Source of the DNA: a virus
Lineage: Duplodnaviria > Heunggongvirae > Uroviricota > Caudoviricetes
Length of the DNA stretch: 12,893 bases
Direction: 5' to 3' (one strand)
Virus record (IMG/VR): IMGVR_UViG_2617270988_000017
The position numbers and the translations under genes were made by a program. Each line of letters starts with the position of its first letter. Within the stretch, counting starts at the first letter, position 1. The notes under the pieces are model-generated. The model saw only the letters and a program-made list of their open reading frames with translations. It was not told the origin of the DNA and made no database searches. Shown in pieces: positions 1-12,893 of the stretch.

Positions 1-1461
1 ATGAAAAAATTACTGCATCTTTTTTTCCCGCTCTCGCTGCGGGTACGTTTTCTGTTAGCAACGGCAGCAGTAGTATTGGTGCTTTCGCTTGCCTACGGAA
101 TGGTTGCGCTGATCGGTTATAGCGTCAGTTTCGATAAAACCACGTTTCGGCTGTTACGTGGCGAGAGCAATCTGTTCTATACCCTTGCGAAGTGGGAAAA
201 CAATAAGTTGCATGTCGAGTTACCCGAAAATATCGACAAGCAAAGCCCCACCATGACGCTAATTTATGATGAGAACGGGCAGCTTTTATGGGCGCAACGT
301 GACGTGCCCTGGCTGATGAAGATGATCCAGCCTGACTGGCTGAAATCGAATGGTTTTCATGAAATTGAAGCGGATGTTAACGATACCAGCCTCTTGCTGA
401 GTGGAGATCATTCTATACAGCAACAGTTGCAGGAAGTGCGGGAAGATGATGACGACGCGGAGATGACCCACTCGGTGGCGGTAAACGTCTACCCGGCAAC
501 ATCGCGGATGCCAAAGTTAACCATTGTGGTGGTGGATACCATTCCGGTGGAGCTAAAAAGTTCCTATATGGTCTGGAGCTGGTTTATCTATGTGCTCTCA
601 GCCAATCTGCTGTTAGTGATCCCGCTGCTGTGGGTCGCCGCCTGGTGGAGTTTACGCCCCATCGAAGCCCTGGCAAAAGAAGTCCGCGAACTGGAAGAAC
701 ATAACCGCGAATTGCTCAATCCAGCCACAACGCGAGAACTGACCAGTCTGGTACGAAACCTGAACCGACTGTTAAAAAGTGAACGCGAACGTTACGACAA
801 ATATCGTACGACGCTCACCGACCTGACCCATAGTCTGAAAACGCCACTGGCGGTGCTGCAAAGTACGCTGCGTTCTCTGCGTAGTGAGAAGATGAGCGTC
901 AGTGATGCTGAGCCGGTAATGCTGGAGCAAATCAGCCGCATTTCACAGCAAATTGGCTACTACCTGCATCGTGCCAGTATGCGCGGCGGGACATTGCTTA
1001 GCCGCGAGCTGCATCCGGTCGCCCCACTGCTGGACAATCTCACCTCGGCGCTGAACAAAGTGTATCAACGCAAAGGGGTCAATATCTCTCTCGATATTTC
1101 GCCAGAGATCAGCTTTGTCGGTGAGCAGAACGATTTTGTCGAGGTGATGGGCAACGTGCTGGATAATGCCTGTAAATATTGCCTCGAGTTTGTCGAAATA
1201 TCTGCAAGGCAAACAGACGAGCATCTCTATATTGTGGTCGAGGATGATGGCCCCGGTATTCCCTTAAGCAAGCGAGAGGTCATTTTCGACCGTGGTCAAC
1301 GGGTTGATACTTTACGCCCTGGGCAAGGTGTAGGGCTGGCGGTAGCCCGCGAAATCACCGAGCAGTATGAGGGTAAAATCGTCGCCGGAGAGAGCATGCT
1401 GGGCGGTGCGCGGATGGAGGTGATTTTTGGTCGCCAGCATTCTGCGCCGAAAGATGAATAA
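1..1461 (+). CDS. phoQ: Sensor histidine kinase PhoQ of the PhoPQ two-component system, complete
   Basis: The 486-aa translation reads as E. coli PhoQ essentially end to end from memory (MKKLL...[15 protein letters not shown]; periplasmic acidic patch EDDDDAEM; H-box [12 protein letters not shown]; C-terminal [12 protein letters not shown]). ATG at 1, TAA at 1459-1461. Confidence 0.97.
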
Positions 1462-1971
1462 ATATGTCCTTTTATCACCACAGCAAGGCAACCAATTGAT
1501 TTAATTAAACAACTCACACTGCAAAAAGTGCTAAAAACAGCAAATTGACTACACCATTAACTACACCGTTCGGTGCACTGTATGAAACAACGTTGAACAA
1601 ATAGACACAAGAAATATACAGGCGGGTAATCTTTCCAGGGGGAAGCGCACCAATTCATGAGGGGCGTTAATGTCGATATGGGGATCCCCATAACGGGGCT
1701 ACCAGATTTTTTTTCCGGTTAACTGTTAATCAGGCTGGTGGGCTTTACCTGTTCGGTAGGTGTTATGATTATCGTAATACCTTTCCCCCAATGGGGTAAA
1801 AGCTCCAACCGTAACGATGTTCGTTATGGTTGCCTTGATGGTCTGAGTGGTCATTTTGACCATTCAGCCAATGACCTTAATCAGAATTTTTCGCTAAAAA
1901 ATGACGTTGGCCACGTCATCCGGAAAGCACAAAATCACGTCGATTTTTAATGAACGGTTAAACCGTCTTTT

Positions 1972-2592: not shown

Positions 2593-2705
2593 CGGGTCCT
2601 TCCTGGAATTATGGACCCGTTACGGGGCGGCGACCTCGCGGTTTTTATCTGTTTATGAAAATTTTCCGGCAAAAGTCAGATCCGTTCTTCTTCTCTGTAA
2701 CAGAC
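2593..2705 (+). other. Lambda-type cos site, left copy (cos-L): cosQ-like, cosN, lambda-like cosB
   Basis: 2593-2636 reads CGGGTCCTTCCTGGAATTATGGACCCGTTACG followed by GGGCGGCGACCT, then CGCGGTTTTTATCTGTTTATGAAAATTTTCCGG...CCGTTCTTCTTC. This closely matches the lambda right-end/left-end junction as I remember it (...CGGGTCCTTTCCGGTGATCCGACAGGTTACG | GGGCGGCGACCTCGCGGGTTTTCGCTATTTATGAAAATTTTCCGG...CCGTTCTTCTTCG). The cosN 12-mer is at 2625-2636. Its packaging direction points into the 3' end of terS. Confidence 0.75.
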
Positions 2706-2723
2706 TGTTTAACAATGAAAATA

Positions 2724-2797
2724 TTAAAAAAAGAAAGGATCTGACACGAGGCATTTTAGCCAGAAAATGCCATTATCAGATCCTTTCTCATTTTTGT
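2724..2797. terminator. Bidirectional Rho-independent terminator downstream of terS
   Basis: Compound hairpin with outer stem AAAGGATCTGA (2734-2744) / TCAGATCCTTT (2776-2786) and inner stem GGCATTTT (2750-2757) / AAAATGCC (2764-2771). An A7 run at 2726-2732 gives a U-tract on the minus strand, and TTTTT at 2791-2795 gives one on the plus strand. Confidence 0.7.
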
Positions 2798-2815
2798 TCA
2801 ATAATTGCGCGTCTG

Positions 2816-3358
2816 TTACTCGCCTTTCTTCTGTAGCAACTTTTCCGGTACGTTTCCGGTTGTTTCTTTCAAGTAATCAGTCAGTATCTGTGGGAGGTTG
2901 TCGGCAACTCTGGCACTGGCATTACAGGCTTTAACCACTTCCCTTTTAAGCCTATCCAGCATGGCGGGGGTAATCTGTGGGAAGCTCCTTTGCATAGTAA
3001 GCGGGAGGCTGTCCATGATTGATGAAATCTGACTCGCCAGCTTTGAAAGCGCGTACAGGCAAAACTCAGTATCAATCACGTCACCGCGATCGCGCTCGTT
3101 TTTAAGTTCCTGCGCCTCCGCCTGTGCTGTCAGTAATCTGATCCTGACTCGTAAGAGTTCATCATCATCAATATCGCCTTTGTCGTTTGTAAGCTGGCTA
3201 ATTGCATTGTTAACCCTATTGTCTATCACGCTGGCAACATCATAAAACGCCTCACGGCCTTTACGTTCAACGGGAGTCACTCCCCACTTGTCGAACGCTG
3301 TCGCACTTACACGGCAGCTTTTCGCCATGTTTTTTTTGTTCATCAGGTGCGATTTCAT
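2816..3358 (-). CDS. Terminase small subunit, lambda Nu1 family
   Basis: The 180-aa product aligns along its length with lambda Nu1 recalled from memory: N-terminal winged-HTH region (NKKNMAKSCRVSATAFDKW vs NKKQLADIFGASIRTIQNW) and C-terminal region (LTAQAEAQELKNERDRGDVIDTEFCLYALSKLASQISSIMDSLPLTMQRSFP vs LTRAQADAQELKNARDSAEVVETAFCTFVLSRIAGEIASILDGLPLSVQRRFP). ATG at 3358-3356. Confidence 0.9.
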   Translation of the reverse strand: MKSHLMNKKNMAKSCRVSATAFDKWGVTPVERKGREAFYDVASVIDNRVNNAISQLTNDKGDIDDDELLRVRIRLLTAQAEAQELKNERDRGDVIDTEFCLYALSKLASQISSIMDSLPLTMQRSFPQITPAMLDRLKREVVKACNASARVADNLPQILTDYLKETTGNVPEKLLQKKGE

Positions 3359-3360
3359 TA

Positions 3361-3534
3361 ATACACCAACTTAATTACTGCTTCAGGTTGGTGTATTGTT
3401 TGCATCTTTCCCTTTTTATTCATAAAGATAGATCAAACAACGAAACCACCACCACCCCCCTGAAAAGGCTCATAAATAGCGAAAAACCGCTAGGTCGCCG
3501 CCCCGTAACGGGCCATAATTCCAGGAAGGACCCG
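3361..3534 (-). other. Lambda-type cos site, right copy (cos-R): cosQ-like, cosN, divergent cosB, directly upstream of terS
   Basis: 3493-3534 is the near-perfect reverse complement of 2593-2635 (42 of 43 positions, one 1-nt indel), with the cosN 12-mer AGGTCGCCGCCC at 3492-3503. On the minus strand it continues CGGTTTTTCGCTATTTATGA (lambda-like), then diverges (CAGGGGGGTGGTGGTGG) and ends in the 10-bp inverted repeat ATACACCAAC (3361-3370) / GTTGGTGTAT (3387-3396) beside the terS ATG. The cosN-cosB-terS order and orientation match lambda. Confidence 0.75.
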
Positions 3535-3535
3535 T

Positions 3536-3558
3536 AAAAAAGCCGGATTTCTCCGGCC
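3536..3558 (-). terminator. Rho-independent terminator ending the capsid operon
   Basis: Minus-strand stem GCCGGA-gaaa-TCCGGC followed by T6 (plus-strand A-run 3536-3540), 6 nt after the stop of the 137-aa ORF. Confidence 0.75.
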
Positions 3559-3989: not shown

Positions 3990-4325
3990 TTATCGGGCCA
4001 GCGGCTGAACGGATACGCCGGAACCCGCAAAGGCGGCGCATTTTTTCGCATCGGTGTCGACGCTCTCAGGCCAGTTAACGGCGGCAATATTGAATATCCC
4101 CGTCTTGTAACACTGTGCTGATTTCTGCTTTGACGTGCCCACAGGGTACGAGGTCAGATAAACAGCCTTGCCAGATTCCTGACCATCCCACGGCTTAAAC
4201 TCGCCATTGTCTGCCAGCATCAGCGGGGTAAATTCCTGAATAACGCCAGCATCAGCGGCAAAATGTACCAACGTCGTGGATACCTGCTGACTGCCTGCAA
4301 ATAACTCAATGTATGGAGTGTCCAT
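3990..4325 (-). CDS. Head decoration protein, lambda gpD family
   Basis: The 111-aa product matches lambda gpD from memory ([23 protein letters not shown] vs [59 protein letters not shown] vs [36 protein letters not shown]). SD GGGGGGA upstream of the ATG at 4325. Confidence 0.85.
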   Translation of the reverse strand: [111 protein letters not shown]

Positions 4326-4337
4326 AGAATCCCCCCG

Positions 4338-5393
4338 TTAACCAATTTTGACGGTAACAAATTTGCGAATATCTGCCGGTACCGGCTGCGGTGCACTGTG
4401 TGTCTGCACGTACTCAATCGCCGGATCGCCGTCCTCAATCCAGTTTTTCGGGTAAAACATGTTTTGTGTTGCGCCCGTTCTTACCGCTTCCTGATCCATT
4501 ATCGCACCATAGGCCACCAGCCCTTTATTGTTGGTGTTACCCAGGACCAGCAAATCAGGCTCAAGGAAATATTTTTCGGTACCATCGCTGTCAGTGTATT
4601 TGCCGGAATAGACGATAAGGGCCAGATCACCAAGATAGCCTTTAAAGCTCACCACTTCGCCCAGGTTTTTACAGGCCAGTTCGGCGGCGGATTCTGAACC
4701 ACGGGAAAGATCGTACAGCTCACGGAATTTTTTAAAGCTGCCTAATGTGCGCCATACCTCAGCGCCCATAATCATGACGTTTGCGGGGCAACCAGCCTGA
4801 TCAGCATAAAGCTCGATGTCATAGATTGGGTCGTGCATGTCTTTATCCTGCTCGGACCATTTTTTACCCTTGGCCTGCTCTATGATGCAGTTTTCCGGTA
4901 TTTTCCAGTCGATTTCATAGCGTTCTATGCCTTCGCCCTCAATGATGTTTTTTCCGGTCGTTACCGCATTCACCGCCAGCCATTCCACGCGTGCCTTAAT
5001 GGCGTTTATCTGGCGGCGCATGTTGCCAGTAATCAGGCGCATACGGCGATAGGTAGGGTCGTTAAGCTGTGCCGGATCTTCTCCAGCCATGCGCATGATG
5101 GTTTTCGTTGGATCGATTTCGTGCTTTGGCTTCATGTAGCCAGGTTTGATTGTGCTGGTTTCGTACCCTTTATCGCGCTGAACCTGGCTACCCACCATAG
5201 GCGAACAAAACGCCGACATGGTGACTTCTTCAATGTCCAGGGTATCCAGCATGATGTTTTGCGTGCTGAATGTCGCCACGTTCGGGAAAAACAGCGTGGT
5301 AAACAGAGGGCTGAATTTAAAATCCGCAATATCCCCGCGATTCAGGTACATGAAAAGCTGGTTAGTGTTAAGTGCCGTTGCTTTGCCTGCCAT
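4338..5393 (-). CDS. Major capsid protein, lambda gpE family (HK97 fold)
   Basis: The 351-aa product aligns with lambda gpE over its full length by eye, at moderate identity (for example KPGYMKPKHEIDP vs TPGYVKPKHEVNP; DPTYRRMRLITGNMR vs DPAYRRRRIIMQNMR; LVLGNTNNKGLVAYGAI vs MVLGNTQARGLRTYGCI; YPKNWIEDGDPA vs YPKNWVTTGDPA). SD GGGGGTGA. The E-then-D gene order is the reverse of lambda. Confidence 0.92.
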   Translation of the reverse strand: MAGKATALNTNQLFMYLNRGDIADFKFSPLFTTLFFPNVATFSTQNIMLDTLDIEEVTMSAFCSPMVGSQVQRDKGYETSTIKPGYMKPKHEIDPTKTIMRMAGEDPAQLNDPTYRRMRLITGNMRRQINAIKARVEWLAVNAVTTGKNIIEGEGIERYEIDWKIPENCIIEQAKGKKWSEQDKDMHDPIYDIELYADQAGCPANVMIMGAEVWRTLGSFKKFRELYDLSRGSESAAELACKNLGEVVSFKGYLGDLALIVYSGKYTDSDGTEKYFLEPDLLVLGNTNNKGLVAYGAIMDQEAVRTGATQNMFYPKNWIEDGDPAIEYVQTHSAPQPVPADIRKFVTVKIG

Positions 5394-5684: not shown

Positions 5685-5764
5685 GATATTGAGTTATGTT
5701 GCAAATTATGAAATGATTATCCCGATCACGAACGCCAGTGCATCCAAAAACCTCATATGCAAAA

Positions 5765-5802
5765 GCCCGATAAGAACCCTCTGACCTTATCGGGCTTTTT
5801 TT
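5765..5802 (+). terminator. Rho-independent terminator, plus-strand orientation, probably bidirectional
   Basis: Stem GCCCGATAAG (5765-5774) / CTTATCGGGC (5786-5795) with a 11-nt loop, followed by T7 (5796-5802). There are four U on the minus-strand side. Confidence 0.6.
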
Positions 5803-7152: not shown

Positions 7153-7348
7153 CCTCTCACTTTTTCGCCTCACTTTTTCAAGCGTCTCACTTCGTCGCAG
7201 TTGGGATTTTCGGTTTTTCTATGTGTGTGTTTCATAAGTATTTTTTTACCCCTCACTTTTGAGGATGTATACAGGTCGAAAAGTGAGGGAGAGCGGGCTA
7301 ATTTTGGCCCTCTTTCTATCCCCCTCGCTTTTGCTCCTCACTTTTATA
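7153..7348. repeat. Iteron array, putative origin of replication of the element
   Basis: CTCACTTTT-type repeats at 7156-7165, 7169-7178, 7186-7192, 7252-7260, 7278-7289 (inverted), 7323-7333 (variant CTCGCTTTT) and 7336-7347, plus an AT-rich stretch at 7230-7248. It lies immediately 3' of the rep gene, as is typical of satellite and plasmid origins. Confidence 0.55.
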
Positions 7349-8743
7349 GCGGCGCTACATCATCCCCATCGATACGAATAACCCCATCTTTTTCCAGCTT
7401 GTACAGCCAGCGCCGGAAGTTTTTCATTTCATACCCCAGCTTTTTCATGTCATCACGTAACAGCGGGATCGTGCACTTGTCGCCGTTCTGTGTGCGTGAA
7501 CGGATGCACCCCCATAGCGCGGTATGGTTTTCCGTCTTGTTCCCTGCCTCCTCGATGCGCTCCAGTTCAACAGGAGGGCGCGGATCATCCACCACCACCA
7601 GCGACGTGATTAATTCACCGTCAGCGTCGGTAAAAAGCTCCACCACGCGTAAGTCATATGCGGCTTCTTTGAGTTCCTCCGCGTCCTTCATTTTGGTGCA
7701 TGAGATAACCAGCGCTTCGCTTCCTGCGTCCTCCCTGCGTATCCGGTATTCAGCATCCAGCGAAGCACGAAATGCACTGGAACCGCGCGCGCCTTTCGTC
7801 TCATCCTTGCCGGAATGGTGAACCACCAGCACCGTGGCCCCTGTGCGTCGTTTCAGTTCGTCACAACCACGGATAAACGCCCCATATCACGGGAATCATT
7901 TTCATCATTCCCACCAAAGCAACGCGCCAGCGTATCCAGAATAATCATGCGTACAGGTTTACCCGTTTCCCGCTCCACCTGACGGGCAGCGATAACCATT
8001 TCATCAACATCAAGCGGGGCAGCCGGAAAGATGGGGCGGTTTACCAGATACAGATTTTTCACCTGCTCATCGTGCACAACCTCCCAGGCTTTTACACGAC
8101 GCGGAACACCTATACCGCCTTCACCAACCACATAGAGAACCGCACCATGTGCAACCCTGCGGCCTCCCCACTGGCGACCAGTGGCAACATGGCACGCCCA
8201 CGATCCGGCAAGGAATGATTTATAGGACCCGCTAGCCCCGTATATGCTGCATAGCGATACCGCCGGAATAATCCCCTTAACCACGTAATCCAGTTGCGTG
8301 TCGTATCCGGTAGATCCAACGCTCATCGGTAGCGTGGTTTTTCGCTGGTGGTTTTTTTCTTCCGCCGGCTCTTTCCCGCGCACCCGTTCCAGGTATTCGC
8401 GCCAGTTCTCCCGCATATGGCTGTGCATCCCTTCGGGGTAATAATTCGCATCAGTTACACCCGCCGCCGCCAGCTTGTGCGCAATGGCATTAATATTTGA
8501 TGGCCTGATGTGGCCTGCCTTGTACAGCCGGACACAATAGCGCCCCTCGTCGATGATTCTCAGGTCTGCCAGTTCATCCAGTTGATCATCAGCCAGCACA
8601 ACGGGAGGCACATTATCGCCAGCCAGTCGCCCGTCCTGTTCCTGCCACTGTTTCGCATGTGCCCAGGCATCACTACCCGCAAAAATAATGACTTCGGTCA
8701 TCTTGTCGTAAGGCTGTTTTTTTAAGTTCGGTGCGCTTTTCAT
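7344..8743 (-). pseudogene. Replication protein (primase/helicase-like, RepA-type P-loop ATPase with C-terminal winged-helix-like tail); reading frame interrupted near 7880
   Basis: The N-terminal ORF (8743..7853) has a Walker-A-like GASGSYKS and ILDTLARCFGG. The C-terminal ORF (7832..7344) continues in another frame with VVHHSGKDETKGARGSSAFRASLD, typical of RepA/AAA_25-like ATPases. The total span is 1400 nt, not a multiple of 3. The frames join if the G4 run (plus-strand CCCC 7880-7883) is G5, giving ...DSRDMGAFIRGCDELKRRTGATVLVVHH... Confidence 0.7.
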
Positions 8744-9501: not shown

Positions 9502-9715
9502 AACCCCCCCCATTTTCACAATCAGCAACAAGAATATTTTTAGCGTCATTCAGCGACCGCGTTGCGATGTATCGGATACATTCCAGGGCGAACTGTGTCC
9601 GGTCTTTCTGTTCTTCTCCCTGCGCAAGCTCTGCAGTGCATTCAATATCGATAAGCGCGTGCATCAGCGTAGTGAGCGCGTCGGCTGCTGCGTCCGGTGT
9701 GGTTTTATTGCACAT
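9494..9715 (-). CDS. Hypothetical small acidic protein, 73 aa
   Basis: ATG at 9715-9713 (MCNKTTPDAAADAL...) preceded by a strong SD (AGGAGGTG). It ends in NGGGYA encoded by a G8 run and overlaps the next start. Confidence 0.6.
   Translation of the reverse strand: MCNKTTPDAAADALTTLMHALIDIECTAELAQGEEQKDRTQFALECIRYIATRSLNDAKNILVADCENGGGYA
9504..9511. repeat. C8/G8 homopolymer at a gene junction
   Basis: Eight consecutive C on the plus strand (G on the coding strand). It encodes the GGG tail of the upstream ORF and lies 2 nt before the ATG of the downstream ORF. Confidence 0.9.
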
Positions 9716-9896
9716 GGCACACCTCCTGACGAATACGGGCGGCGAATACAGCAACACAACCGGACGGGCAACGGCTACGCGCTTCGCGTTCCGTCCAGGC
9801 GGTTACGTGGATGATTTGATGTTCTGACGCGCCAAAGATGATAAAGCGCCAGAGAAAGGCGGTTTGAGAATGTACAAGGGTAGGGATAGTAGCCAT
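9705..9896 (-). CDS. Small protein, 63 aa; possibly Icd-like (host cell division inhibitor family), tentative
   Basis: ATG at 9896 with SD GAGGAGG 8 nt upstream, TAA at 9707-9705. The WRF and FAARIRQ motifs resemble what I recall of Icd-like small proteins from P4-like islands, but this is unverified. A diverged tandem copy lies 369 bp upstream. Confidence 0.5.
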   Translation of the reverse strand: MATIPTLVHSQTAFLWRFIIFGASEHQIIHVTAWTEREARSRCPSGCVAVFAARIRQEVCHVQ

Positions 9897-10056
9897 GTTG
9901 GCAGCCTCCTCAGTGTGGTTAAGATAACCGCCACCGGAAACGCCAATTTCGCTGGTGGCGGACTGTACAGGGTTGGCGTAACCGGACACTGAAGAAACCG
10001 GCGCGGATTGCTCCGCCCCCGTACAGCCCACCATTGATAAGGTGTGACTATGCGGC

Positions 10057-10082
10057 ACAAAAAAACACGCGGGGCGCGTGTT
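10057..10082 (-). terminator. Strong Rho-independent terminator signature inside the upstream tandem copy
   Basis: Minus strand reads AACACGCG-CCC-CGCGTGTT followed by TTTTTTT (plus-strand A7 at 10059-10065). It is GC-rich with an uninterrupted U-tract. Confidence 0.65.
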
Positions 10083-10265
10083 ATGCGCTTCAGTTTTGCC
10101 CAGGACGCCAATCCCGGCACCCGTTTTATGAGGTGCGCGGGAATCATAGCTATTTTCGACACTGGCGATCAACTGGTTTTTTTCTCCGATATTCAGGGCC
10201 AGAAAACGCCACACAAAGGCCGTTTGTGTGTGTACAAGGTGTGGTATATGATTTACGGCAACCAT
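10083..10265 (-). pseudogene. Degenerate tandem paralogue of the 63-aa ORF (or translated leader); no in-frame stop before the terminator
   Basis: ATG at 10265 with SD AGGAG. The first 30 or so codons are homologous to the downstream ORF (PHLVHTQTAFVWRFLAL vs PTLVHSQTAFLWRFIIF) with synonymous and conservative changes. The frame then runs through the terminator without a stop, and a C-terminal-like motif (RVFLCRI vs AVFAARI) appears only in another frame. Confidence 0.35.
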
Positions 10266-10293
10266 AACGGCTCCTAGTTTACGTTGTTGGTTA

Positions 10294-10328
10294 GACGCCC
10301 CGTATGTGTTCCCAGCACTGCGGGGCGT
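10294..10328. promoter_or_regulatory. 8-bp inverted repeat ACGCCCCG / CGGGGCGT with a 19-bp spacer in the divergent control region
   Basis: Arms at 10294-10301 and 10321-10328, in the 5' leader of the minus-strand small-ORF operon and upstream of the RHH promoter. Confidence 0.4.
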
Positions 10329-10353
10329 TGATTTTTGTGTAATGGCAAGTACA

Positions 10354-10395
10354 ATGGTAATTACCATGTAGGTATAGTAATGAAGGGTAATTACC
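10354..10395. promoter_or_regulatory. Two GGTAATTACC operator-like palindromes at the RHH gene promoter
   Basis: Perfect 14-bp palindrome ATGGTAATTACCAT at 10354-10367 and GGTAATTACC at 10386-10395, centres 30 bp apart. The second abuts the RHH ATG. A TATAGT -10-like hexamer is at 10373-10378. Confidence 0.6.
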
Positions 10396-10569
10396 ATGTC
10401 AACACCATTAGAAAAACGTTCGCCTCCATACCAAATGCGATTACCGGAAGACTTCAGAGCGCAGCTAGAAGAAGCAGCTAAGGCCGATGGCGACACATCT
10501 TTAGCCACTTGGATTAAACGCGTTCTCCGCAAAGAATTACAGCAACGCGGCATAGAACCCAAAGGATAA
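10396..10569 (+). CDS. Ribbon-helix-helix (Arc/CopG-like) DNA-binding protein, 57 aa
   Basis: ATG at 10396, TAA at 10567-10569. The product MSTPLEKRSPPYQMRLPEDFRAQLEEAAKADGDTSLATWIKRVLRKEL has the typical RHH pattern (beta-strand YQMRLP, then two helices). It is absent from the ORF track because it is under 60 aa. Confidence 0.7.
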   Translation: MSTPLEKRSPPYQMRLPEDFRAQLEEAAKADGDTSLATWIKRVLRKELQQRGIEPKG

Positions 10570-10611
10570 AAACTATCAGCGCCGTGGTGTGAGGTATTAC
10601 GGCGCATTGCT

Positions 10612-10800
10612 ATGCAGGACAACACAATGACCGATAAAGAATTGACCAAAACATTATCACCGGCACGGAAAAGACGGCGCAGAAAGATAGAGCATGAATC
10701 AGAAAGATTCGCGCCATGTGCTTTTGCCCTTGAGCAATTCCTTAAAGAGTACAGGGAAAAGCGCTCATTGCAGGTATGGCAACGAACTGAACCAGACTGA
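10612..10800 (+). CDS. Hypothetical small basic protein, 62 aa, downstream of the RHH gene
   Basis: ATG at 10612 (alternative ATG at 10627 with AGGA upstream). It contains an ARKRRRRK basic patch. The coding call is weak. Confidence 0.4.
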   Translation: MQDNTMTDKELTKTLSPARKRRRRKIEHESERFAPCAFALEQFLKEYREKRSLQVWQRTEPD

Positions 10801-10894
10801 TTGCATTGCCCACCAGCCTGATAGCGGCTATCATCCCCGTGCTTATGTTTGGGATCACATACACATAAGGCGCAGCGGGTTAATTGTTCAGAAA

Positions 10895-10922
10895 GGCGGC
10901 TCCATATCGGGGCCGCTTTTTT
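10895..10922 (+). terminator. Rho-independent terminator between convergent alpA and the RHH operon
   Basis: Stem GGCGGCTCC (10895-10903) / GGGGCCGC (10909-10916) followed by T6 (10917-10922). Confidence 0.65.
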
Positions 10923-10948
10923 CGTGTTTGTCATATCTGTGATACCCG

Positions 10949-11651: not shown

Positions 11652-12893
11652 CTACACGGCTCGGATACCCCTTTTACCACTGGCGAGGGTTACGCCCGTC
11701 GCCGCAGCCTCGACAAATTCGCCCCACCAGCGCATCAGCACGATGCGTTTTTCTATGTAGTTGCTCCGGTTGTATGCCCGTCTAACTTCGTTGGTGTCGA
11801 CGTGGGCAAGTGCCGCCTCTATTACGTCCGGCTCGAATCCTTCCTCGTTCGCTGCTGTGCTGAATATGGCGCGTAATCCATGAGACACCAGCACGCCAGC
11901 GAATCCCATACGCCGCAATGCTGCGTTAGCTGTCTGGCTGTTCATCGGCTGCTGTGGGTCTTTCAGACTTGGGAAAACGTAATTGCGGTGGTGGCTGATT
12001 GGTTTCATGGCCTCCAGCACCGCCATAGCCTGACCGGAAAGCGGGATAACGTGATCCCTGCGCATCTTCATGCGTCCGGCAGGTATCGTCCATTGCTTCG
12101 CGTCCAGGTTGATTTCATCCCACCGCGTTGATGACGCTTCGGCGGGACGGGTTACGGTCAGTAACTGCCATTCAATCAGTAATCTGGTCTGCCGTTCTGT
12201 TGCCGATACTGATAAAGCCTGCATAAGCTCGGGCAGCTGTTCGGGGCGGATTGTTGGCATATGTTTTTTTACAGGTGAGGGAAACGCCTTACGCACATTC
12301 ATAGCCGGATTGGCATCAATCAGCCCACTGTTGGCGGCGTAATCCATTACCTCATTAACGCGCTGTAAAACCCGCTTGAGTGTTTCCAGGTTGCCGCGCT
12401 CCTTGATGGGGGTAAGCACTTCAACGAACCTTCGGGCGGTGAGGGTATCTATTGGCGTGTTGCCGATGAACGGGAATACATATTTATCCAGCGAACGCCA
12501 GATGTCTTTAATCGTGTTGGGGGCCAGATTCTGGCTGATTTTCACCTGGTACCATGCCGCCGCCACATTTTCGAACGTGTTCCCTTGTCTTCGGGCCTCT
12601 GTCTCTCTTTTTTGCCTCTCGTGGTCCTGCGGGTCAGTTCCGGCACTGATTAACGTCCTGTACTCGCTACGGCGTTTTCTGGCATCAGCCAGGGAAACAT
12701 CTTCAAGCGATCCAAAACTCAGCAATATTCTTTTTTTGTCCGATGGTCGGTAGTAGGAAAATCTCCAGAGTTTTGATCCAGACGGTTTGACCAGGAGAAA
12801 AAGCCCTCCGCCGTCCTGCAGGGTGTACTCCTTTTGCGCTGGTCTGGCTGCTTTGATCTGCACTGTGGTTAATGGGTGTGTTTTTCTCGCCAT
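11652..12893 (-). CDS. int: Site-specific tyrosine integrase, P4 family
   Basis: 413 aa with an N-terminal arm-binding-type region (KEYTLQDGGGLFLLVKPSGSKLWRFSYY) and a C-terminal catalytic domain (HGLRAIFST...RAYNRSNY). The ATG is at the last three bases of the window, so the upstream region and att site are outside it. Confidence 0.95.
   Translation of the reverse strand: MARKTHPLTTVQIKAARPAQKEYTLQDGGGLFLLVKPSGSKLWRFSYYRPSDKKRILLSFGSLEDVSLADARKRRSEYRTLISAGTDPQDHERQKRETEARRQGNTFENVAAAWYQVKISQNLAPNTIKDIWRSLDKYVFPFIGNTPIDTLTARRFVEVLTPIKERGNLETLKRVLQRVNEVMDYAANSGLIDANPAMNVRKAFPSPVKKHMPTIRPEQLPELMQALSVSATERQTRLLIEWQLLTVTRPAEASSTRWDEINLDAKQWTIPAGRMKMRRDHVIPLSGQAMAVLEAMKPISHHRNYVFPSLKDPQQPMNSQTANAALRRMGFAGVLVSHGLRAIFSTAANEEGFEPDVIEAALAHVDTNEVRRAYNRSNYIEKRIVLMRWWGEFVEAAATGVTLASGKRGIRAV

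Follow-up and report, generated by a model that had tools for sequence, protein, structure and literature searches.

The 12,893-nucleotide stretch recorded as IMG/VR virus IMGVR_UViG_2617270988_000017 (hereafter the window) carries a cos-type phage-inducible chromosomal island (PICI) of the EcCICFT073 family, in which a full-length Nu1-type small terminase subunit (TerS) takes the place of the specificity protein Rpp. The cos site directly upstream of its terS gene, cos-R, is probably the packaging initiation site of this island: it has its own N15/Monarch-type recognition site beside terS, and hence the island's DNA is probably packed by its own recognition protein acting with the cutting enzyme of a helper phage, the large terminase subunit (TerL). 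A preliminary description of this DNA had proposed a packaging-specificity switch at this position, which is right in outline; however, a private cosB combined with a second, inverted cos was already known from EcCICFT073 and its Rpp (PMC6739421, PMC6092414).

The family assignment draws on gene content, location and direct comparison. The window encodes an integrase, AlpA and Rep, has unidirectionally arranged genes, includes homologues of phage capsid and decoration proteins and has its own attachment (att) site, one that phages do not use, as is characteristic of Gram-negative PICIs of the EcCICFT073 family; window 1460-1469 reads as the reverse complement of GGACATATTT, the published EcCICFT073 att core. 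In Escherichia coli CFT073 the same locus, the ycfD-phoQ site, is occupied by EcCICFT073, the model satellite with cos1 and RppA (Fillol-Salom 2018, 2019; Murialdo & Feiss 2022). The two islands are about 94% identical on either side of window 2670-3462 and unrelated within it, this homology ending at 3463: the interval contains cosB1, rppA and cosB2 in CFT073 (L002 2599-3264) and cosB, terS and cosB in the window. Such 94% identical flanks around a non-homologous cassette suggest that cassettes are swapped when the conserved cos cores recombine. In both islands the specificity gene is flanked by two inverted cos sites, the cosQ and cosN sequences are identical to those of lambda, and a non-phage cosB adjoins the gene. 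They differ in the gene itself, which codes for a 180-residue Nu1-type TerS with homology to the lambdoid TerL-binding region in the window and for a 135-153-residue Rpp without detectable similarity to it in EcCICFT073, as well as in the adjoining cosB, which is tripartite in the window and has a single R3 in EcCICFT073. No Rpp homologue was found in the whole window by BLASTP and hhalign against RppA or by tblastn of the window. Nor does the window contain a TerL gene, either in the list of open reading frames (ORFs) or by Pfam; the absence of such a gene after terS marks the latter as a satellite TerS.

Positions within cos-R are given in base pairs (bp) along the minus strand, bp 1 being window position 3503 (Table 1). 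The site combines the elements of a lambda-like cos: the cohesive end, cosQ and I2 flanks, an R3 (R3', bp 48-68) in the range of about 48-65 bp from the cohesive end that is usual for such sites, and the R2 and R1 of complex versions, together with an IHF-like core that is only weak in this copy. The preliminary description had seen a lambda-like start next to cosN followed by a cosB that had diverged from that of lambda, and the first of these holds: cos-R and lambda agree at 20 of the 22 positions of bp 13-34, and identity to phage cos sites is about 80% from the cosQ side to roughly bp 46 (window 3458), where the BLAST homology stops. The remainder of the cosB beyond bp 46 found no match among 50,697 phage records in this search; the G-rich/(TGG)n stretch is present as quoted in that description, the string CAGGGGGGTGGTGGTGG corresponding to bp 42-58. 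With lambda, cos-R further shares the positions of R3 and R2 within 1-2 bp, R2' aligning with lambda R2, a comparable distance between the centres of these two sites (about 57 bp for R3'-R2' as against about 56 bp in lambda), the inverted orientation of R2 and R1, and homology of its TerS to Nu1. In contrast, its R-site sequences are unrelated to those of lambda, the DNA-binding domain of its TerS is only 27% identical to that of lambda, and the distance from cosN to the terS start codon is 145 bp rather than 190 bp. The claim of a diverged lambda cosB gives way to a different assignment, namely the N15/Monarch class, with a correspondingly N15-like TerS DNA-binding domain (PMC4669245).

Phage N15 has a single R3, GAGGTTGTTGTT, at bp 48-59, while the Monarch group of N15-like prophages combines the N15 recognition helix with a complex cosB composed of R3, an integration host factor (IHF) site, R2 and R1 (PMC4669245). 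R3' of cos-R occupies the position of the lambda and N15 R3 sites, and window bp 51-60 (GGTGGTGGTT) match N15 bp 50-59 (GGTTGTTGTT) at 8 of 10 positions, the two sites being built of related GTT/GGT triplets. A pattern scan of IMG/VR for cos loci with a (TGG)3 block listed at least 120 matches, and the following statements refer to these. They comprise satellites and Monarch-like phages, the latter being true phages in which cos, terS and terL follow in order (L028, L038, L058, L066, L072, L081 and L083). These phages have the recognition helix SVQAFDKW, an R3 of the form GGTGGTGGTTGTTGTTTT, an R2 of the form A(A/T)ACAACAACC and an R1 of the form GGTTGTTGTATT; their R3 and inverted R2 and R1 occupy the same places as the window sites, and the order R3, IHF site, R2, R1 seen in Monarch, and in L028 and L038, is also that of the window, with a weak IHF-like core at the IHF position. 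Moreover, their R2/R1 pair forms an inverted repeat that is one symmetric base off the window arms (ACAACAACC versus ACACCAACC). The window nevertheless departs from N15 and Monarch in each of the corresponding elements: its recognition helix has AT where they have VQ (SATAFDKW versus SVQAFDKW), its R3' has GGTGGT where they have GTTGTT, and its R2' and R1', each one base off, read ACACCAAC as against ACAACAAC; it also has no TerL gene after terS, and the C-terminal half of its TerS is of another lambdoid type. The combination ACACCAAC / GGTGGT was encountered only in satellites, one step away from the ACAACAAC / GGTTGTT sites of the N15/Monarch phages, and we know of no phage with this cosB from either the BLAST search beyond bp 46 or the IMG/VR matches, in which the phages have the other R variant. 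These comparisons point to the cosB of cos-R being a related but distinct variant in the N15/Monarch specificity class, and a satellite-only variant so close to the phage sites would constitute a private address.

The protein tells a parallel story. TerS belongs to the Nu1 family as the preliminary description had it, scoring 83 bits against Pfam PF07471 (cutoff 30) and aligning with lambda Nu1 over residues 6-166 at 99.9% probability in hhalign. The Pfam match, however, covers residues 33-148 only, so that the N-terminal helix-turn-helix (HTH), which had been described as Nu1-like but non-identical, is not lambda-like at this level. Its closest phage relative is N15 gp1 (46% identity overall). 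Over residues 1-55 the identity amounts to 55% with N15, 51% with the Monarch-like phages, 24-27% with lambda-type Nu1 proteins (27% with lambda itself) and 25% with both phage PhiR5_1 and a sister PICI described below; over residues 99-167 it amounts to 41% with N15, 36% with the Monarch-like phages, 39% with lambda, 55% with PhiR5_1 and 74% with the sister PICI. The recognition helix reads SATAFDKWGV in TerS and SVQAFDKWGV in N15. The protein is thus a mosaic, N15-type in its DNA-binding domain and lambdoid in its C-terminal half. Its start at 3358 is backed by the conserved N-terminus MxxHL(L/M)NKKN of its relatives. Within the family of this TerS, the DNA-binding domain hardly varies, whereas the last ~45 residues, which bind TerL in lambda, vary most; the C-terminal TerL-binding region, previously taken to be conserved, is therefore the least conserved part of the family. 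A nearly invariant DNA-binding domain joined to a variable C-terminus fits a fixed DNA address that is served by changing TerL partners.

That the satellite TerS would recognize its own cosB, as had been suggested, gains support from the co-occurrence of site and protein across genomes and from a natural swap. Among the listed IMG/VR cos loci that have the (TGG)3 block, at least 117 in number, every locus with a readable downstream gene encodes an AFDKWG-type TerS. A PICI capsid gene is present at 106 of 120 of the listed loci, and among these a TerL gene directly follows terS only in the Monarch-like subgroup. The swap is provided by the sister PICI (L023, L011), in which the C-terminal half of TerS is 74% identical to that of the window, while the DNA-binding domain is of the lambda/PhiR5_1 type: the R sites of its upstream cosB, CATGTCGGT, resemble those of PhiR5_1, whereas its downstream inverted cos keeps the TCAGATCC sites of the second cos of the window, cos-L. 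The TerS of this sister PICI has 200 residues, a DUF1441 protein is encoded nearby, and both of its cosN sequences depart from that of lambda.

The second site, cos-L, lies at the 3' end of terS and is inverted relative to cos-R, with inverted repeats I1 and I2 linking the two in a layout like that of EcCICFT073 cos2. The preliminary description had assigned it a lambda-like cosB, and it does have the lambda layout, with three R sites that share the core TCAGATCC(G/T)TTCT (repeats D4, I3 and I4). These cores, of about 13 bp each, recur unchanged in a resident lambdoid prophage (L024), where cos is followed by Nu1 and then TerL, and the cosB of cos-L as a whole is 78% identical to the cos of phage PhiR5_1. 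On this evidence cos-L seems to be a helper-type cos for a phage other than that addressed by cos-R. One could ask instead whether the satellite TerS recognizes the cosB of cos-L, which adjoins the 3' end of terS and has three clear R sites, rather than the upstream one. We regard this as scarcely credible: the Nu1 of the prophage with the identical R sites is only 24% identical to the satellite TerS in the DNA-binding domain (29% in the C-terminal half), the sister PICI combines a different DNA-binding domain and a different upstream cosB with the same kind of downstream sites, and cos-L is missing in many relatives of the TerS type. Among the relatives examined at 85% identity, cos-L is absent, cut at mid-cosN or degenerate, and cos-R is usually intact, which makes cos-L the dispensable part. 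In two such loci (L005 and L006, at about 1345-1390) cos-L is cut in the middle of cosN, with GGGGCGGCGG joined straight to the terS stop codon and the whole cosB gone; a deletion, or an end made by terminase, could have left such a scar.

The recognition elements of cos-R are conserved well beyond this island. Of 5,426 complete E. coli genomes, 763 contain the terS-cosB cassette at 85-99% identity and 97 the RppA cassette, and satellites of Enterobacter and Citrobacter encode TerS homologues that are 57-59% identical to that of the window. R3' is near-invariant in the E. coli relatives; in most of the Enterobacter/Citrobacter satellites its start lies at bp 50, and one Enterobacter-type subgroup has it at bp 53. 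All lineages that possess R2' have its start at bp 108, with the spacer and flanks freely diverged around it, and among 15 distinct E. coli-type sequences it is nearly invariant, only its third base, T, varying. R1', on the other hand, is degenerate in most relatives, and the other genera lack it, having a ribosome-binding site in its place.

These patterns bear on the inverted repeat next to the terS start, the reality of which is not in doubt: rather than the 10 bp first reported, it pairs at 11 of 11 positions across a 16-nucleotide spacer and ends 1 nucleotide before the ATG at 3358. When the 148-bp region from cosN to the ATG is shuffled, 0.2% of the shuffles contain a perfect inverted repeat of 10 bp, and about 0.6 such repeats are expected by chance over the whole 12.9-kb window. 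Since inverted R2/R1 pairs are also present in lambda, cos-L and the Monarch-like phages, the repeat represents the ordinary R2/R1 arrangement with a satellite-specific sequence; it is not the satellite novelty that it had been taken for, and only its left arm is conserved. An alternative is that the repeat forms an RNA hairpin in the terS leader, which would hide the ribosome-binding site and thereby control TerS translation. In line with this, the 91-nucleotide leader folds at -19.9 kcal/mol (z = -4.1, no shuffle being as stable), and the right arm contains GGTG 5 nucleotides before the ATG. Across the 15 E. coli-type sequences, however, 7 of the 11 stem pairs are broken and none of the 11 shows a compensating change, the perfect repeat being kept in only 2 sequence types and confined to one E. 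coli lineage. The left arm is near-constant and the right arm drifts, and satellites of other genera have the left arm alone. Drift of R1' without compensation indicates that no hairpin is selected; we accordingly rejected the hairpin as a conserved signal and consider translational control by it quite improbable.

Equally, a perfect palindrome-like element placed just before a gene could serve as an operator through which a transcription factor of the satellite or the helper regulates terS, and the presence of an AlpA-like HTH gene directly upstream of cos in many relatives offers a candidate factor. Yet R2' stays unchanged as the upstream gene differs by lineage (Nu3-like in the window and CFT073, AlpA-like elsewhere), it is absent from the Rpp-type cos1, and the arms track the recognition helix of TerS in the Monarch-like phages. 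Furthermore, no promoter-like site is present, a promoter and terminator scan of the cos-R cosB having found nothing. We therefore hold an operator to be very unlikely.

Taking the repeat as an R2'/R1' pair of a complex cosB and not as a hairpin signal, we infer from the observed anatomy, homologies, conservation and co-occurrence the following route for the island. A dimer of TerS, through its N15-type, probably winged HTH, would bind R3' and the inverted R2', with the A/T-rich spacer between them bent, possibly with the help of IHF, and with R1' as a probable accessory site. The lambdoid C-terminal domain of TerS would then recruit the helper TerL to nick the lambda-identical cosN and package the DNA, and cos-L might let a different resident lambdoid prophage package the island with its own terminase. 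Earlier work offers precedents. The determinant that Rpp-TerS recognizes in CFT073 is the cosB of cos1 (PMC6739421). Engineered lambda-N15 hybrid TerS proteins are functional with lambda TerL, and the lambda and 21 terminases fail to package N15 DNA (PMC4669245); from the latter, the satellite site should be private. Relatives of the cassette are also found within prophages: in two cases, L145 and L062, the prophage around the cassette has a gene for a nearly identical lambda Nu1, and in the Enterobacter-type loci L012-L017 a module of capsid, decoration, HTH, cos and terS is inserted in the major capsid gene of a lambdoid prophage, helper-embedded satellites having been described before (bioRxiv 10.1101/2022.07.18.500453). 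The hybrid precedent, the failure to package N15 DNA and the residence of relatives in prophages with lambda Nu1 together make the proposed mechanism plausible. Rpp has no TerL-binding tail and requires the helper TerS (PMC6739421, PMC9026076), and so a TerS that has its own TerL-binding tail is predicted to be independent of helper TerS.

Several observations weigh against this reading. In the window copy, the IHF-like core deviates from the consensus at 3 positions, whereas a consensus at bp 74 on the same strand has 0-2 mismatches in lambda, cos-L, the prophage L024 and the Enterobacter/Citrobacter satellites, which speaks for an I1-like site in these relatives. R3' and R2' are only moderately alike (7-8 of 11 positions). 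The scan found no promoter for terS, and a terminator-like hairpin stands between the capsid operon and cos-R. An AlphaFold2 model of TerS from a 17-sequence alignment reached a predicted local distance difference test (pLDDT) score of 61, too poor to confirm a winged HTH; at that score its secondary structure runs strand-helix-helix-strand-strand-helix, and its N-terminus aligns with the lambda and N15 DNA-binding domains. A Foldseek search of the model against the PDB returned only FAT-domain-like helical bundles and was uninformative, and a PDB sequence search matched neither the Nu1 DNA-binding domain nor RppC. Finally, several relatives have a degenerate cosN, and in this copy the RepA-family helicase gene (7344-8743, minus strand) is split into ORFs of 296 and 162 residues by a 1-nucleotide deletion in a G-run at about 7879-7883, as judged against a 99.8% identical intact gene of O157:H7; many copies may hence be decaying, although the frameshift, which may have left this copy replication-defective, may also be a sequencing error. 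In the one published test the TerS-encoding islands of IHE3034 and 18098 showed little or no transfer with their resident prophages.

The last points raise the question of whether cos-R and terS are disused relics of a captured phage left end, the island moving, if at all, through cos-L and a helper terminase. The frameshifted repA, the poor transfer and the degenerate cosN of some relatives are what one would expect from this, but the frequency of the cassette in complete E. coli genomes, the conservation of satellite-specific R sites and of the DNA-binding domain across genera, and the fact that it is cos-L, and not the usually intact cos-R, that is lost, truncated or degenerate are not. In CFT073, too, it is cos1 and not cos2 that matters for transfer (PMC6092414). 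We consequently view the relic scenario as unlikely and retain cos-R as the probable initiation site.

Comparison of the two kinds of cassette revealed a further relationship between their sites. The R3 of Rpp-type sites is conserved at bp 55-63 (PMC9026076), and its (CCA)n core is the reverse complement of the core of the window R3'. In CFT073 cos1, the proposed core ACACCACCACCA at bp 53-64 (L002 2611-2622) is the exact reverse complement of the Enterobacter-type R3' (TGG)3TGT; the window block at 3443-3454 (bp 50-61), at almost the same distance from cosN, is one base off the flipped ACACCACCACCA and also resembles R2'. A search of E. coli genomes for other Rpp-type cos1 sites returned mostly generic cos matches. 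We tentatively put forward a scheme which, taken as a whole, we regard as possible rather than probable. In it, the inverted cos cores frame a plug-in specificity cassette that is exchanged among PICIs by recombination; the versions of this cassette may include Rpp and TerS with either an N15-type or a lambda-type domain; with TerS, the route would be independent of helper TerS and use a satellite-private address, to which cos-L would add a second helper; and with the flipped (CCA)n/(TGG)n 12-mer, Rpp and TerS could read related sites in opposite directions, each keeping the TerL-binding partner on the cosN side.

Among other satellites, a functional parallel is the Staphylococcus aureus pathogenicity island (SaPI), the TerS of which redirects the helper TerL to the SaPI pac site as a private address (PMC6092414). 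As in our proposal, a satellite-encoded TerS is combined with a helper TerL; unlike the cos-type window, SaPIs package by headful from pac, reside in Gram-positive bacteria, have a TerS of an unrelated fold family and use a separate inhibitor, Ppi. E. coli PICIs that encode TerS have already been listed (PMC6092414). EcCIRM12579 was catalogued at the same ycfD-phoQ site in O55:H7, and the island of UM146 was tabulated alongside EcCIIHE3034 (Fillol-Salom 2018); we found the cassette at 97% identity in other O55:H7 and O157:H7 genomes, and the terS-cosB cassette at 99% identity in UM146 and Nissle 1917. Both EcCIRM12579 and EcCIIHE3034 appear as catalogue entries only, and in the searchable literature we found neither an analysis of their cos/TerS specificity nor papers devoted to TerS-type cos PICIs. 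The same literature yielded no description of the N15/Monarch-class identity of this cosB and TerS, of the tripartite R-site map, of the satellite-only R variant, of a cassette bounded by inverted cos sites or of the greater frequency of the TerS type over the RppA type.

Among cos PICIs, a packaging mechanism has to our knowledge been worked out only for Rpp, with its need for helper TerS. With 763 genomes of the TerS type (among them O157:H7, O55:H7 and Nissle 1917) against 97 of the RppA type, the commoner type is thus the unstudied one. The idea of Murialdo and Feiss that TerS serves solely to deliver TerL finds a natural test in these islands, in that the satellite's own tail should make helper TerS dispensable. 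They are also the natural counterpart of the engineered lambda-N15 hybrid terminases, and as a third, satellite-only variant of the N15/Monarch class they help map which residue reads which base. In practical terms, they show which sites to keep or swap in PICI-based delivery vehicles.

Table 1. Coordinates of cos-R, cos-L and flanking genes in the window
Feature	Position	Strand	Remarks
cosQ-side flank of cos-R, CGGGTCCTTCCTGGAATTATGGCCCGTTACG	3504-3534	minus	96% complementary to 2593-2617 beside cos-L; aligns to phage cos and to EcCICFT073 cos1
cosN of cos-R, GGGCGGCGACCT	3492-3503	minus	12-nucleotide cohesive end identical to lambda bp 1-12 (exact match)
Lambda-like segment (I2 region), bp 13-46	3458-3491	minus	common to phages and EcCICFT073
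R3', GGTGGTGGTGGTTTCGTTGTT, bp 48-68	3436-3456	minus	proposed main TerS binding site
A/T-rich spacer with weak IHF-like core, bp 74-86 (I1 position)	3418-3430	minus	
R2', AATACACCAAC, bp 107-117	3387-3397	minus	left arm of inverted repeat; orientation opposite to R3'
R1', GTTGGTGTATT, bp 134-144	3360-3370	minus	right arm of inverted repeat; overlaps likely ribosome-binding site (GGTG, 5 nucleotides before ATG)
terS, Nu1-family small terminase, 180 residues	2816-3358	minus	
cosB of cos-L	2637-2794	plus	R3 2675-2692, IHF-like 2698-2710, R2 2728-2745, R1 2776-2794
cosQ flank and cosN of cos-L (cosN 2625-2636)	2593-2636	plus	exact second copy of cosN; inverted relative to cos-R
Exchangeable specificity cassette (cosB of cos-R, terS, cosB of cos-L)	2670-3462	minus	bounded by two inverted cos cores
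93-residue protein	2278-2559	minus	
Nu3/scaffold-like protein, 137 residues	3564-3977	minus	matches C-terminal part of head maturation proteases (phrog_53)
gpD-like decoration protein	3990-4325	minus	
Lambda gpE-like major capsid protein	4338-5393	minus	
phoQ	1-1461		left end of window, followed by the island
P4-type integrase gene	11652-12893		other end of island

The genes around the cassette follow each other on the minus strand in the order capsid, decoration protein, scaffold-like protein, cos-R, terS, inverted cos-L and 93-residue protein; further products of this strand of the island are a RepA-type helicase, SSB and PerC. E. coli relatives at 85% identity, like the Enterobacter/Citrobacter satellites, have a 127-residue AlpA-like HTH protein in place of the scaffold-like one. 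Between the scaffold-like gene and cosQ, at 3535-3557 on the minus strand, the hairpin GCCGGAGAAATCCGGC is followed by TTTTTT, as is also the case in CFT073; it looks like an intrinsic terminator, though it was not listed by the scan tool. Elsewhere in the island, in a region annotated as Icd-like in O157, Rfam matched a C4 antisense RNA at 9951-10038 (77.6 bits) and an IsrK small RNA at 10060-10136 (66 bits), both on the minus strand; in view of these matches, the 409-residue ORF at 9705-10934 is unlikely to be a real gene. An intergenic segment at 5761-5800, in which AAAAGCCCGATAAG forms a perfect 14-bp inverted repeat around an 11-nucleotide loop, is probably a terminator.

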